Of a stretch of 64,000 nt of DNA, positions 7,053 to 57,410 are shown one piece after another. Source of the stretch: an uncultured Myxococcales bacterium (GTDB lineage Bacteria > Myxococcota_A > UBA9160 > UBA4427); the NCBI GenBank assembly GCA_965603475.1, contig CBFDDD010000002.1, forward strand, positions 57,531 to 121,530, given 5' to 3'. The first letter of the stretch is position 1. Each line of letters opens with the position of its first letter. Under the pieces are notes generated by a model. The model searched no databases and was not told where the DNA came from. It was given only the letters and a program-made list of their open reading frames with translations. The translations under genes and the position numbers were made by a program.

Positions 7053-8048
7053 TTGAGCTTGAACCTGTTGGGATTGGGTCATTTCCATCCCGAGAACGAG
7101 ATAACGAATCAGTTCCTCGAGGACCTCGACATTGGCACCAATGACGAGTGGATTCTCGAGCGAACGGGCATTCGCAGCCGCAGAACAGCGCTGCCCCTCG
7201 ACTATATTCGGGAGACGCGGAACAAAGATCCGCGCGCCGCGGTCGAGTCCGCGGTGATCTCCAATGCCGAGTCCGGCGCTCGGGCCGCCGAGATGGCGCT
7301 TTCCCGCGCCGGAATTGCTGCCAGCGACGTCGGACTCTTGATAGGCGGTGGCTGCGCGCCGGATACAGTGACGCCTGCAGAAGCCTGCAATATCGGTGCA
7401 GCGCTCGGTGTCGAAGCACCTTGTCTCGACATCAACTCCGCGTGCTCGAGTTTCATTGCGGGTATCTACATGCTCTCGATGATGGATCCGACAAAACTGC
7501 CTCCGATCGTTCTGCTCGTCACAGCGGAGCCCATGACGGGGACAGTCGACTACAGCGATCGCTCTTCAGCCGTACTCTGGGGGGATGGTGCCCTCGCTGG
7601 GGTGCTGTCGACCAAGGAGACTGGGCGCGCGTCGCTCGTGGGCCAGACACTCACGAGTAATCCCGCCGGCCGAGAGAAAATCGTCATTCCTAGGCTCGGC
7701 CATTTTCGCCAGGAAGGTCGGACCGTTCAGAGCTTTGCGATTCGGAAAACCTCCAACCGCTATCTCTCTATGCGAGAGTCCTTCAGGCAGGACGATCGGG
7801 CCTTTCACTTCGTGGGCCACCAGGCAAATCTACGAATGCTCGAGTCCGTGTGTCGTCGCTGCGAGATTCCCAACGACCTCCATCATTCCAATTGTGAATT
7901 TTTCGGCAATACGGGGGGCGCAAGCTCCGGTGGCGTAATCTCCCAGAACTGGGACAAATGGACCCCAAGAGACGACATCAGCGTGGTTGGTGTCGGTGCG
8001 GGGCTGACCTGGGGCAGCTATCTGATGCGCTTCAATGAGGACGACTGA
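7053..8048 (+). CDS. fabH: 3-oxoacyl-ACP synthase III
   Basis: WILERTGIRSR; Cys-His-Asn triad (SACSSF, HQAN, GNTG); GVGAGLTWG. Confidence 0.9.
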   Translation: MSLNLLGLGHFHPENEITNQFLEDLDIGTNDEWILERTGIRSRRTALPLDYIRETRNKDPRAAVESAVISNAESGARAAEMALSRAGIAASDVGLLIGGGCAPDTVTPAEACNIGAALGVEAPCLDINSACSSFIAGIYMLSMMDPTKLPPIVLLVTAEPMTGTVDYSDRSSAVLWGDGALAGVLSTKETGRASLVGQTLTSNPAGREKIVIPRLGHFRQEGRTVQSFAIRKTSNRYLSMRESFRQDDRAFHFVGHQANLRMLESVCRRCEIPNDLHHSNCEFFGNTGGASSGGVISQNWDKWTPRDDISVVGVGAGLTWGSYLMRFNEDD

Positions 8049-52381: not shown

Positions 52382-53057
52382 CGACCTTTCGGCGGATCAC
52401 GAAGCCCAACTTCTGGTACAGACGCGTCGCGTTCTCGTTCGATTCGAGCACGTGCAGGAATGCTTCATCGCCCCCCGCTCGAATGGCATGGGCCACATTC
52501 AGGGTGAGTTCGCCAGCCAGCCCTTCCCCCCTTGCATCGGGATGGGTACAGACCGCGCTGATCTCGACATAGCCAGGCAGGCGAAAGCGCTCTCCGGCCA
52601 TCGCGAGCAGGCGCCCCTCCCGTCGAAGGCCGACATAACGACCCAATTCGGGGGTCCGTAGCAGGAAGGGTCCGGGTTCGGTCAGTTCCGCGAGGGCCAG
52701 CATTTCCGATTGATCTTCCGGCCCGAGCCGAACGATTTCGAGACCCGACGGTTCGGGAAGCCGATCGGCCACCATTTGCCAGCAGGGGCCCCGGAAGTGT
52801 TCTTCCCAACCGCTCGGCGGAGGATCGATGATATCGCGAAAGAGCCCGCAAAAGCCGTCGATGCCAACGCGCTCTCCGATGCGTCGCCAGATGGCCTCGT
52901 CGATCCGATCGACGGCGCTGAATACGCTGACCTCGGGGTCGAAATGGACGAGATCTGCGCTCGAGTGGCGTGCGGCAAATCGAGACAACGGACCGTTCAA
53001 CGCATGCCACACCGGATTGTCGAGGAGACTGTCGTCGCGGGGCGAATGTTCTGTCAT
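52341..53057 (-). CDS. GNAT acetyltransferase (FR47-like)
   Basis: LDNPVWHAL, PGPF, AMAGER, EISAVCTHPDARGEG and LYQKLGF. Confidence 0.88.
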   Translation of the reverse strand: MTEHSPRDDSLLDNPVWHALNGPLSRFAARHSSADLVHFDPEVSVFSAVDRIDEAIWRRIGERVGIDGFCGLFRDIIDPPPSGWEEHFRGPCWQMVADRLPEPSGLEIVRLGPEDQSEMLALAELTEPGPFLLRTPELGRYVGLRREGRLLAMAGERFRLPGYVEISAVCTHPDARGEGLAGELTLNVAHAIRAGGDEAFLHVLESNENATRLYQKLGFVIRRKVDVVFAQWHGPDAT

Positions 53058-53132
53058 GGATGGAGCATTGTCGTGCAGCGAAGCAACGGACGCATTAGCT
53101 TATTGAAGACCCCCGAACCCTCTGGAGCCCCC

Positions 53133-55244
53133 ATGACCGCCATCAATGAAGTCACCGACCTTCGCCTCGAAGGCGACATCGCCGTACTCACCCTCGACTC
53201 GCCTCCCGTGAACGCCCTCTCCGCCAACGTGCGGACAGGACTCTTCGAGGGCATTCAGGCCGCCGATGCAAATGACGATGCTCGCGCGATCGTGTTGATC
53301 TGCGAGGGACGTACCTTCATCGCTGGCGCGGACATCACGGAGTTCGGCGGCAAGGGACCGGCCGGTGCCTCCCTCACCGACGTGCAGTCGGCCATGCAGA
53401 ACGCGAAGAAGCCTGTGATCGCCGCGATTCACGGTACCGCCCTCGGTGGCGGACTCGAAGTCGCGCTCTGTGCACATTTTCGCGTTGCGGTGCCTTCCGC
53501 CCGATGCGGGCTCCCCGAAGTGAACCTCGGTCTGCTGCCCGGTGCGGGCGGAACCCAGAGACTTCCGCGCATCGTGGGTGTCGAAACGGCCCTGGCCATG
53601 ATGACGAGCGGACGACACGTCCCGGCGGCGGAGTGTCTCGAACTCGGACTCGTTGACGAATTGGTCGACGAAGGCGGCCTGCTCGAAGGTACCCTTGCTT
53701 TCGCAAACAAGGTTCTCGCCGAGGGCCGGCCACTTCGCAAGGTCGACGAGTCGAACGAGAAGGTCGAAGCGGCGCGCGGTCAACCCGAGATCTTCGAGAA
53801 GTTCCGCGCTGGCATCGCACGCAAGACGCGAGGCTTCCTCGCCCCGGAGTACAATATCCGCTGCATCGAGGCCGCGGTCAACGAACCTTTCGATGAAGGA
53901 CTCGCGACCGAAGGTCGGCTCTTCATGGAACTCATGACCGGAGAGCAATCCGCCGCACAACGTTATGCGTTCTTCGCCGAACGCGAAGTCTGGAAGATTC
54001 CGGACGTCCCGCGCGACACGCCGCAGATTCCGATCGAGCGCGTCGGGATCGTCGGAGCCGGCACGATGGGCGGTGGCATCGCGATGAATTTTGCGAATAT
54101 CGGCCTTCCGGTCATTCTCGTCGAACGAGAGCAGGAGGCCCTCGATCGCGGCCTCGGCGTCGTTCGAGCCAACTACGAACGAAGCGCCAAGCGCGGACGG
54201 CTCTCCGCGGAAGACGTCGAAGCCCGAATGAGTCTATTGACCGGATCGGTCGAGATCGAAGATCTGGCCGACTGCGATCTCGTCATCGAGGCGGTCTTCG
54301 AGAACATGGCCGTCAAGAAGGGCATCTTCGCCGACTTCGATCGTGTGATGAAGCCGGGGGCAATCCTGGCGACGAATACCTCGGCCCTCGACATCGACGA
54401 AATCGCGAGCGCGACAAAGCGCCCCGAGTCCGTCATCGGTCTGCATTTCTTCAGCCCGGCGAATGTGATGCGGCTCGTGGAAGTGGTCCGAGCCGATCAC
54501 ACCTCGAAGGAGGTCATCGCGACTTCGATGGCGCTGGCCAAGCGCATAGGCAAGATGGCGGCCCTGGTCGGCGTCTGTCGTGGCTTCGTCGGAAACCGCA
54601 TTCTCGCACCGCGTCAGCAACAGGCCAACGAACTCCTGCTCGAAGGCGCGATGCCCTGGGACGTCGACCGCGTGCTCTACGACTTTGGTCTCCCGATGGG
54701 CCCCTTCGCAATGAGCGACCTCGCGGGGCTCGACATCGGCTGGAGCAAGGAGACATCGAAAAGCGAAACGCTTCGTGACGTACTCTGCGAAATGGATCGT
54801 CGAGGCCAGAAGAATGGCAAAGGCTTCTACGACTACGGGGCCGACCGCAGTGCCAGCCCTTCACCCGAGGTCGAAAAGATCATTCGCGATTTTGCGGCGG
54901 GCAGAGGTGGCGGTAGCGGTAGCGGTAGCGGTAAAGAGCCGCGCGCGATCTCGGACACGGAAATCCTCGAGCGCTGCGTGTATCCGATGATCAACGAAGG
55001 GTTCAAGATCCTGGCCGAGGGAAAGGCGATTCGCGCTTCGGACATCGATGTCATCTGGGTCAATGGCTACGGATGGCCGGTCTACCGCGGCGGTCCGATG
55101 TTCTACGGGGAACAGGTCGGACTCGATCGCGTACTCGATCGTCTACGGGAACTCCAGAAGACCCACGGCGACGCCTTTGCGCCCGCGCCGCTGCTCGAGC
55201 AGATCGTGGCCGAGGGCAAGAGCTATCGAGAGTTGGGGTACTAG
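53133..55244 (+). CDS. Enoyl-CoA hydratase / 3-hydroxyacyl-CoA dehydrogenase bifunctional enzyme
   Basis: [44 protein letters not shown] and HFFSPANVM; GGAG RBS before ATG 53133. Confidence 0.93.
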
Positions 55245-55268
55245 GCTGCGGAGTTGTCCTGTCGATTA

Positions 55269-55657
55269 GGGTGCCAGGTGGCGCGGGTGGTAAAGCCCGG
55301 CGCTCGCCGGTCGGCTCCGGCGGGTGTTCCCGCATGATGCATCGAGGCGCGCAGTTACCGCCTGCGCCTCCAGGCTCCCACCGAGCTTTCCCACCCGCGC
55401 CACTCGGACGTTTGTGCCAGGACATTTCCGTAGGCTGGTTTTTGCGTGGCGATCGATTGCGCTTGGCCTTCGCATTCTGTTGTGGGCGAGGCTGGGGATA
55501 TCTCGATTCGAAGGCGGGTCGAGTGGCGCGGGTGGGGGAGCCTGACGGGAGCCTGGAGGCGCAGGCGGTGGCAATCAGCCCCGATGCATCATGCGGGAGC
55601 GACCGCCGTAGCCGACCGGCGAGCGGTAGGGTCCACCACCCGCGCCACCTGGCACCC
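55269..55657. repeat. Two inverted 138-bp copies of a structured palindromic element (REPIN/ERIC/MITE-like)
   Basis: 55269-55406 and the reverse complement of 55520-55657 align without gaps at 114/138 nt (hand count); the outer 23 bp are a perfect inverted repeat; each copy is itself closed by a 13-bp stem. Confidence 0.9.
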
Positions 55658-55694
55658 AAATTGGTTCCGCTTTTTCGCGGCCTGCTAGCCTCGT

Positions 55695-57410
55695 ATGTGC
55701 ATGCCGATCGCCGAATCCGACGCTCCGCCGTATTCCCTGGATGATTTGCAGAGCGCGCGCTTCCCGGAGCGAACGCGCCTCGTCTGCCGAATGTGGGCGG
55801 AGCAAATCGGAGCCATTCCGTTCATTGTTGTCGTGATGTATTGGGTCAAGTACCTGCTGCTCTTTGCGGGTGGCTGGGCCTTTTTCTGCTCCTTTTCGCA
55901 GGGCTATCCGGGCTTCACTTCGATTGGAGCCTGGGCCTTCACGGGTCTCGCGTTCCAGAAGGCAATTCTCTGGGCAATCGTCTACGAATCGGCCGGATTC
56001 GGTTGTTCGTCGGGCCCGATGAACGGGCGATTCTGGCCCCCCATCGGCGGCTTCCTGCATTTCCTTCGCCCGGGTACGACGAAACTGCCGCTCGTTCCGG
56101 GCATGCCGGTTCTGGGTGATGCACGCCGCAGCTGGCTCGATGTCGCACTCTACGCGGCCAATCTGCTCTTTCTGCTACGCGCTCTCGTCGCGCCCGATCT
56201 GACGATGTCGCTCCTGCTTCCTTCGTTCTTCTTGATTCCTTTGCTCGGCGTGGTGGACAAGACTCTTTTTCTCGCAGCGCGTGCGGAACATTTCTGGATC
56301 GTCCTCACCTGCTTGACCTTTGCGAGCGCGAATGATCTCTGGGTGCCGGCCTGCAAGGTCGTGTGGTGTTTCGTCTGGTTCTGGGCCGCGACGTCGAAGC
56401 TGAATCATCACTTTCCGTCGGTCATCATGGTCATGATGAATCAGGGACCGCTCTTCCCGAAGTGGCTCAAGAAAAGGCTCTTCGTGTCGTTTCCCGATGA
56501 TCTGCGTCCTTCGAAGGTCGCGACGGTGATGGCTCATATGGGAACCGTCACGGAGGTGATGATTCCAATTGCGCTCCTGGCGAGCCAGAGCATGCTCTTC
56601 ACCGGCCTCGTTCTCTTGGTGATGTGCGGTTTCCACGGATTCATTGCACTCAACAACCCGAGCGGCATGCCGATCGAGTGGAACATCGTGATGATCTACG
56701 GCGGCATTTTCCTGTTTGGATTCAATCCCGACGCGAGTGTGCTTGCCCTGGGCGAGTTGCCGCTTCTGGTCGCGTTTCTCGCGTTCTTTCTGGTTGTGAT
56801 TCCGCTCTACGGCAATTTCGTACCCCGGAACGTCTCGTTCCTGATGGCGATGCGGTACTACGCCGGGAACTGGGCCTACAACGTCTGGTTCTTTCGAGGC
56901 GATGCACAGAAAAAGCTGAACAAATTGACGAAAGCTTCCCTCACCATGCGGGAGCAGTTATCCGAGATGCTCGACGACGATGAGGCCGTCGAGACCGCGA
57001 TGATCATGATGCCCGCAATGCGGATGATGCATCTGCAGGGCAGGGTGCTCCACGAAGCGATTCCCCGCGCGTTCGAGAATATCGATGACTACGAGTGGAT
57101 GGAGGGCGAAGTCATCTCCGGTCTCGTGCTGGGCTGGAATTTTGGCGATGGCCACTTGAACGACCAACAGTTGCTCGAGGCGATTCAGGAGCAATGTGAG
57201 TTCGAAGAGGGCGAGCTGCGGGTCGTGATGGTCGAGTCCCAGCCGCTCTTCGGACGAACGATGGCATGGAAGGTCGTCGATGCTGCCACGGGTGTGATCG
57301 CCGAAGGGGAAGCGGAGGTCTCGGGGATGCGCGAGTTGCAGGCCTGGCCCACGGGCGACGCGGCCGAGGCATTCATGACCGGCGGGCTCCTCGACCCGGA
57401 ATCCGCCTAG
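55695..57410 (+). CDS. DUF3556-like polytopic membrane protein
   Basis: FQKAILW...GFGCSSGP...RFWPPIG...[19 protein letters not shown] and YAGNW resemble the actinobacterial DUF3556 family (from memory). Confidence 0.75.

Follow-up and report, generated by a model that had tools for sequence, protein, structure and literature searches.

The question raised by the intergenic gap between a FadB-like gene and a DUF3556 gene, in the 64,000-nucleotide stretch of DNA analysed here (the window), is what kind of element fills it and how that element arrived. A preliminary description, made from the letters of the sequence, had seen two inverted structured units in this gap and had suggested either a repeat mobilised by a RAYT-type HUH transposase or a novel cis-regulatory RNA. 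The best explanation that we can offer, with a probability of roughly 0.85, is that positions 55245-55684 are a 440-bp non-autonomous MITE which was mobilised in trans by an IS5-family DDE transposase. Judged from sequence, it is a member of a MITE superfamily spread through this bacterial order, whose ends and CTAG target are those of an IS5-family IS. An IS5-family transposase would insert such elements at YTAR sites (mostly CTAG) and would duplicate 4 bp in doing so.

A repeat search of the window gave an inverted pair of arms of 142 nt each (55265-55406 and 55520-55661; 82% complementary, 113 nt between them), and an internal inverted repeat was also found within each arm. The arms hold two inverted hairpin units of ~136 nt (55271-55406 and 55520-55655) that are 82% alike, and both copies are identical over the outer 23 nt, GGGTGCCAGGTGGCGCGGGTGGT. 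The inverted pair of folding units with its perfect outer 23 nt and ~113-nt spacer, as originally described, is therefore confirmed, but the element itself is larger than the 55269-55657 assigned to it: it occupies the whole intergenic gap and exceeds those coordinates by ~25 nt on each side. The larger extent is bracketed by CTAG, at 55241-55244 on the left, where the tetranucleotide includes the TAG stop of the upstream gene, and at 55685-55688 on the right. Since these two copies lie just outside the earlier coordinates, the statement that no target-site duplication is visible has to be withdrawn. The parts of the locus are as follows.

52710..55244, plus strand: upstream gene for a FadB-like enoyl-CoA hydratase/3-hydroxyacyl-CoA dehydrogenase (ORF list; Pfam 3HCDH_N, ECH_1 and 3HCDH).
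55242-55244, plus strand: TAG stop of the upstream FadB-like gene, inside the left CTAG.
55241..55244, no strand: left copy of the target-site duplication, CTAG, also the stop of the FadB-like gene (from the sequence, the (C)TAG before most family ends and the IS duplications).
55245..55270, plus strand: degraded left terminal inverted repeat (GCTGCGGAGTTGT..., without the first CAG of the consensus CAGGCTGCGGAA(A/G)AAC), and linker to unit 1.
55271..55406, plus strand: hairpin unit 1, 136 nt, in which the basal stem covaries and the apex, containing GCATGATGCATCG, is conserved (covariance model, 144.7 bits).
55425..55437, plus strand: further, inverted copy of the terminal repeat, inside the element at the inner limit of arm 1 (TTTCCGTAGGCTG; cf. 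TTCCGCAGCCTG; inner-flank comparison).
55438..55487, no strand: central segment, partly conserved among composite copies (TTTTTGCGTGGCGATCG...; spacer matches on contigs C7 and C173, inner flanks).
55488..55501, minus strand: further, inverted copy of the terminal repeat, inside the element at the inner limit of arm 2 (inner-flank comparison).
55520..55655, minus strand: hairpin unit 2, 136 nt, opposite to unit 1 in orientation (covariance model, 133.1 bits).
55656..55684, minus strand: linker and right terminal inverted repeat, reading CAGGCCGCGAAAAAGC on the minus strand and matching 13 of 16 consensus positions (end comparison).
55685..55688, no strand: right copy of the target-site duplication, CTAG (from the sequence, family flanks and the IS duplications).
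55695..57410, plus strand: downstream gene for a DUF3556 membrane protein (Pfam DUF3556).

All five ORFs overlapping the element were without a Pfam match, and neither a transposase nor any other conserved coding capacity was found by this search in the 440 bp. A read-through or C-terminal extension of the FadB-like protein past its TAG was considered and rejected, since the frame runs for 31 codons before it closes and the linker is not of constant length (offsets from −29 to −32). On the downstream side, the real start of the DUF3556 gene is probably the ATG at 55701 (MPIAESD...), 12 nt past the duplication, orthologue N-termini being MPIADSD...; there is no exact match to this protein on record. 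Neither a Shine-Dalgarno-like nor a sigma-70-like site was detected in the start region (55685-55701), and transcription of DUF3556 may read through the MITE or may start inside it, possibly of necessity. Further upstream, the FadB-like gene carries an in-frame (GGTAGC)n run (54903-54935), of which a 12-nt length variant is present in metagenome contigs and at which word depth is very high because of its low complexity.

The unit belongs to a dispersed family. In its own genome assembly (5.19 Mb in 208 contigs, 92.7% complete, 60.7% G+C), BLAST gave ~31 matches to the 142-nt arm, and iterated nhmmer gave ~30 units at ~21 loci on different contigs, which bears out the earlier idea of a dispersed intergenic structured repeat of the ERIC/MITE type. 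Nine of these loci are pairs, all head-out and with similar spacing, and the remaining loci are single units; several units sit at contig ends, indicating that the repeats break the assembly. Identity between units in this genome ranges from 60-87% (mean 74%); about three subfamilies can be told apart, near-identical copies are absent, and the units differ from one another through indels and paired stem changes. When the flanks were aligned, conservation was seen to run outward for ~30 nt, to (C)TAG followed by CAGGCTGCGGAAnnnCGGAACCGAnnGG, and inward for ~35 nt, to ...TCGACCGCTTTCGAATCGAnnTTTCCnCAGCCTG, where it ends as an inverted copy of the outer end. Searches with a covariance model of the 136-nt unit showed that it is confined to the genus and abundant in its own genome only, with 1-3 copies each in 5 of 30 congeners. 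An exact-pattern scan of 185,579 species genomes for the unit core gave a single true relative, one further unit copy in a MAG labelled "Actinomycetota bacterium Sva-07", all other matches being due to chance. In another species of the genus (G020, locus L081, C9:43579-43713), a unit was observed just upstream of a SnoaL-like orthologue, and in the own genome the element lies downstream of the same gene (contig C19); this arrangement is either a coincidence or the result of a local rearrangement.

Each unit forms a long hairpin closed by GTGGCGCGGGTGG/CCACCCGCGCCAC, and folding reproduced both this closing stem and the copy-specific stem change that had been noticed by eye (AAAGC/GCTTT in copy 1 versus GGA..CCT/AGG..TCC in copy 2). 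Compared with shuffled sequences, the folding of the units gave z = −3.9 (copy 1) and −2.5 (copy 2), and the full element as a single strand collapsed into one giant hairpin (z = −16.6). In the consensus structure of 19 units, 95.2% of the cells were standard pairs and 18 of the 34 pairs showed double-sided changes; the covariation score was 0.373, versus 0.133 ± 0.012 for shuffled alignments (0 of 500 reached it) and 0.04-0.09 for slid partners, and in the basal helix 17 of 24 pairs covary. The differences between copies that had been described as covarying are therefore genuine compensatory changes. The same description had taken the G-U pairs as a sign of a strand-specific fold, but mismatches across the family were divided almost equally between G·T (14, wobble on the unit strand) and A·C (13, wobble on the opposite strand), and strand specificity is consequently not a property of the family. 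Conservation was higher in the apex than in the stem (0.84 and 0.75), and the apex core GCATGATGCATCG was exact in 24 units and occurred nowhere else in the genome. No T-tract was found after the hairpins, and no terminator-like or promoter-like site was found near the element; a permissive scan of Rfam 15 gave best scores of 22.9 and 22.4 bits versus gathering scores of 168 and 42.5. With wobbles symmetric between the strands and no Rfam match, the suggestion of a novel cis-regulatory RNA is not supported.

Since neutral decay at 74% mean identity would leave far fewer pairs, the complementarity of the stem is actively kept. We infer that this upkeep takes place either at the DNA level, by template-switch or gene-conversion correction of the palindrome, or by selection for a hairpin on both strands along with a sequence-specific apex, and we do not read it as the mark of a strand-specific RNA. 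Template switching and intra-element conversion are established ways in which quasi-palindromes become corrected, and long internal hairpins are not required by DDE cut-and-paste transposition. In three units (C46:~7270-7297, C120:4003-4030 and C53:22138-22165), part of the basal stem is substituted, at the same position, by a 28-nt segment, GAGCGCGAGCGATCAGCGAGTGCGAGTA. This segment was encountered twice more (C9:25918 and C121:9435), directly before an end reading CTAG and then CAGGCC... and beside GGTGCGGTGCGGTTTTCGCGAAGT, and it may be part of a second small repeat family.

The ends of the element reach much further than its interior. The family end consensus is CAGGCTGCGGAA(A/G)AAC, and most copies read (C)TAG and then CAGGCTGCGGAA... 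at their outer boundary. A 15-mer from this end, TAGCAGGCTGCGGAA, searched with one mismatch allowed, was enriched in many genomes of the genus (in one relative, 15 matches versus 3 for the reversed control) and throughout the order (for example 41, 44, 30 and 28 matches versus 0-2 for the reversed control). The matches bound elements of 31 to ~500 bp with unrelated interiors, the same ends and CTAG on both sides; the short elements begin with CAGGCTGCGGAA(G/A)AAC and end with ...GTTCTTCCGCAGCCTG. In other species, some MITE variants contain half a unit together with the core GCATGATGCATCG, and a single-unit element with CTAG on both sides is present in a relative (L092 in G013). Immediately behind a gene stop at another locus, L088 (minus strand of G025:C62, ~340-385), two CTAGs enclose a remnant of 31 bp, CAGGCTGCGGAAGAACTCCTCCCATCGCCTG, which resembles either a MITE with a collapsed interior or a footprint.

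Two of the order-wide matches turned out to be inverted pairs 1.3 kb apart, and the pair in genome G113 encloses a 369-codon gene, the 369-aa product of which scored 268.7 bits on NCBIfam NF033581 transpos_IS5_4 (cut-off 140) and matched Pfam DUF772 and DDE_Tnp_1. Homologues of this transposase were present in 18 of 193 genomes of the order, with ten identical copies in one closed genome, and the genus itself contains a degenerate copy (G014) and a fragment (G011). For comparison of ends and flanks, 18 IS copies were bounded; they measure 1,261-1,360 bp (1,061 bp for the degenerate G014 copy) and carry terminal inverted repeats of 16-18 nt, CAGGCTGC(G/T)GAA(A/G)AAC. Their flanks were CTAG/CTAG in 13 cases, TTAG/TTAG in 3 and CTAA/CTAA in 1, and since the latter two types are not palindromic, the flanks must have arisen by direct duplication of the 4 bp of a YTAR target. 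The 1,292-bp IS of G152 has exactly the terminal repeats of the MITE consensus, the degenerate G014 IS has them unchanged at its left end, and the IS ends of G113, G069 and G160 are one base off the consensus. Past the terminal ~16-18 nt, the window element and the IS have nothing in common, and the unit core GCATGATGCATCG is absent from the IS; for a MITE to share just its terminal repeats with its IS is the standard relationship. Neither tblastn nor a genome search revealed a homologue of the partner transposase in the own assembly (92.7% complete, 208 contigs). The six DDE_Tnp_1 genes of this genome were rejected as partners, as none bears these terminal repeats, and so were two CTAG-flanked IS5-family IS of G013 (888 bp and 1,200 bp), whose terminal repeats differ (AACGTATCTCATAAAC and GGAACCTCTGCAGAAC). 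Both of the latter are multi-copy (L108/L109 and L110/L111), and their different ends indicate that several CTAG-specific IS lineages coexist in the genus.

The CTAG target also accounts for the position of the element flush with the FadB-like stop. CTAG is 5.5-fold depleted in the own genome (3,350 observed versus 18,459 expected). TAG is an unusually frequent stop: among 2,787 conservatively chosen ORFs, 41% end with it, and 42% of those TAGs follow a C. Gene stops account for at least 14% of all CTAGs, a share that rises to about a quarter when the incompleteness of the gene set is roughly corrected for. At 14 of 27 intact outer ends, the stop of a long frame lies 29-32 nt before GTGCCAGGTGG and is the TAG of the flanking CTAG, or a TAA or TGA at that place. 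Ten frames reading into elements were submitted to Pfam, and nine of them matched (SelB, NuoN-like subunit, PPIase, SnoaL-like, DctM, YccV-like, MsrA, carboxyltransferase and transglutaminase-like); seven of these nine genes end at the flanking stop, and the other two end 36 nt (SelB) and 7 nt (DctM) before the element. Where the flank is used as a stop, it reads TAG, TAA or TGA, and the latter two can be reached from TAG via stop-to-stop transitions; at genes that end 7-40 nt before it, decay has often turned it into GAG, TGG or TAT. The element is probably flush with the upstream stop because tolerated insertions pile up on TAG stops: an insertion within a gene does not survive, and at a stop codon the stop is re-created by the duplication, so that stop-codon CTAGs dominate the surviving sites. 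The paired units lie between convergent genes (contigs C7, C19 and C27), where one end of the element is flush with a stop and the other lies 0-36 nt from the stop of the second gene, a geometry that fits the prediction for insertion into one stop of a tight convergent pair. In six convergent gene pairs of the own genome, a single CTAG serves as a double stop.

Insertions of this family can be placed in time to some extent. The SnoaL/PPIase convergent pair has a 35-74-nt spacer without the element in three relatives, indicating that the insertion there arose in the present lineage, at a junction that is too divergent to align exactly (~75% amino-acid identity). In the nearest relatives of the window genome, the DUF3556 gene has a different upstream neighbour, and no precise empty site for the window copy or any other copy of the 136-nt unit was recovered from relatives or metagenome contigs. 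In eight marine-sediment metagenome runs (2019-2025), every contig at the locus has the element and no flank-to-flank joint was found, at a depth of just 2-6x; the single metatranscriptome of the same sample gave no coverage. The ends of the window copy are degraded (the left one without CAG, the right one matching at 13 of 16 positions). Together with the 60-87% identity among units, the absence of the partner transposase from the assembly and the presence of the insertion in all metagenomes examined, these ends show that the window copy is a fixed, immobile fossil. Mobility of the 136-nt-unit subfamily is suggested by the ends and flanks that it shares with the wider superfamily and the IS.

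How the two arms came together, and by what machinery, can be weighed against two other accounts. In the preferred reading, each arm would be a small palindromic MITE consisting of terminal repeat, 136-nt hairpin and inverted terminal repeat, and two head-out arms with a short captured segment between them would have become one composite moving via its outer repeats. We consider it rather likely that the arms moved as such a composite, since orientation is the same in all nine pairs, part of the centre is conserved and the inner ends lack a YTAR duplication, the conserved sequence going on there as GCTC/GCCC...; the step is made uncertain by the arms, which do not cluster cleanly by their position in the composite and are no more alike within a composite than between loci. 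This last observation, the separate inverted terminal-repeat copy at the inner end of each arm and the CTAG-flanked single-unit element of G013 (L092) would all fit two independent insertions of ~200-bp single-unit MITEs, adjacent or one beside or into the other. Such a history is nevertheless quite unlikely, because all nine pairs are head-out with similar spacing around a partly conserved centre, their inner ends continue without a duplication, and nine chance double hits are implausible with ~21 loci in 5.2 Mb. As for the machinery, inverted doublets of hairpins with variable yet complementary stems, and a GTG(C)C start that loosely resembles GTRG, recall REPINs, that is, REP-type hairpin doublets moved as single-stranded DNA by a RAYT (Y1 HUH) transposase. 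To this mobilisation by RAYT/HUH, which the preliminary description had put forward, we give hardly any credence: Y1_Tnp (PF01797) was unmatched in the own genome and matched in control genomes, the units are 136 nt and not 20-40 nt long, and the terminal inverted repeats and 4-bp duplications are identical to those of the IS5-family DDE element. In the lack of a Y1/RAYT transposase gene from the genome, the REPIN reading was rejected. A PATE derived from IS200/IS605 was rejected as well; PATEs have subterminal hairpins and a partner Y1 TnpA but lack both terminal inverted repeats and a duplication, and here terminal repeats and duplications are present and a Y1_Tnp gene is absent. Nor did an integron attC-like reading stand, the copies being dispersed among housekeeping genes and occurring also in convergent pairs.

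A different matter is whether a host function has been added on top of the MITE origin. Stem pairing of 95% at 74% mean identity, along with the invariant apex GCATGATGCATCG, goes beyond what the MITE model alone explains, and the 136-nt hairpin might have been domesticated and kept for such a function, in which case it could stabilise RNA 3' ends, could serve as a terminator or insulator working in both directions between adjacent, often convergent genes, or could bind a protein at its apex. In line with this, pairing stays at 95.2% despite 60-87% identity, with 18 of 34 pairs doubly changed and covariation of 0.373 versus 0.133; the apex is conserved above the stem, and its core, exact in 24 units and absent from the rest of the genome and from the IS, recurs in MITE variants of other species. 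Copies directly behind stop codons would be co-transcribed with the gene before them, and DUF3556 starts 12 nt past the element without a promoter-like site nearby. These points are met, however, by the 14 G·T versus 13 A·C mismatches, unlike an RNA selected on one strand, by hairpins that lack a T-tract, a terminator-like site or an Rfam match, by template-switch correction, which can keep stems paired without selection, and by the CTAG target, which by itself accounts for the position after stops. On balance, we regard domestication as unlikely. Doubtful, too, on the sequence evidence at hand, is the more specific proposal that the hairpin with its GCATGATGCATCG apex is a selected strand-symmetric device carried on an IS5-type MITE and placed behind TAG stops. 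If it were true, the device could separate closely spaced, often convergent genes as a transcription insulator or terminator acting in both directions, or could form a cruciform between them that binds a protein, and the host or the element would keep the stem paired via compensatory change long after loss of the transposase.

Taken as an IS5-derived MITE, the element can be set beside several known systems. MITEPsy1 of Pseudomonas syringae is a 100-nt MITE derived from an IS5-family IS, ISPsy2, with CTAG or YTAA duplicated (PMC3189936), and it is similar in being short, non-coding and dispersed in many copies, in having an interior unrelated to its IS, and in its IS5-family terminal repeats and CTAG/YTAA-type tetranucleotide target with a 4-bp duplication. 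Unlike MITEPsy1, the window element is 440 bp long and consists of a pair of 136-nt hairpin modules in inverted orientation, both of which contain an extra internal terminal repeat, and its family is old, with extensively compensated stems and no transposase in the genome. Duplication of a CTAG target is known for IS5, as cited in PMC10379815. The IS5 group resembles the autonomous elements that share ends with our family (1.26-1.36 kb, one DDE gene, 4-bp YTAR duplications), whereas the window element has no transposase and only the ~16-18 terminal nt in common. With ERIC/IRU and YPAL of enterobacteria and Yersinia the resemblance is in build, a relationship in sequence not being expected. As reported by De Gregorio, Di Nocera and colleagues, these elements are imperfectly palindromic, measure 127-170 nt and lie in intergenic DNA that is transcribed, often shortly after stop codons; they form long RNA hairpins and have spread via transposition with target duplication. 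No transposase partner is known for them. The window family, by contrast, has an identified partner family, and its association with stops comes from the CTAG target. REP units are 20-40 nt long with a GTAG/GTRG head and no target duplication, and the REP/REPIN-RAYT system is similar to the present family in its intergenic, inverted doublets of hairpin-forming repeats; it differs in that here the RAYT gene is absent, terminal repeats and a target duplication are present, and the units are 4-6 times longer.

A striking feature of this DNA is thus explained in ordinary terms, which spares its pursuit as a new RNA or a new REPIN system. The element is of an ordinary kind and unusual only in its long, well-kept internal hairpins; what is notable is the nested hairpin build and the logic of stop-codon targeting. 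For annotators, these repeats account for many of the contig breaks in assemblies of the genus. For the uncultured marine-sediment lineage to which the bacterium belongs, the analysis adds a previously undescribed MITE superfamily together with its IS5-family partner, and it provides a clear example of a CTAG-specific transposon lying flush with TAG stops, in which a TAG that serves as a stop drifts among stop codons only. Finally, long hairpins that stay paired over deep divergence without strand bias help to separate upkeep of palindromes at the DNA level from selection at the RNA level.
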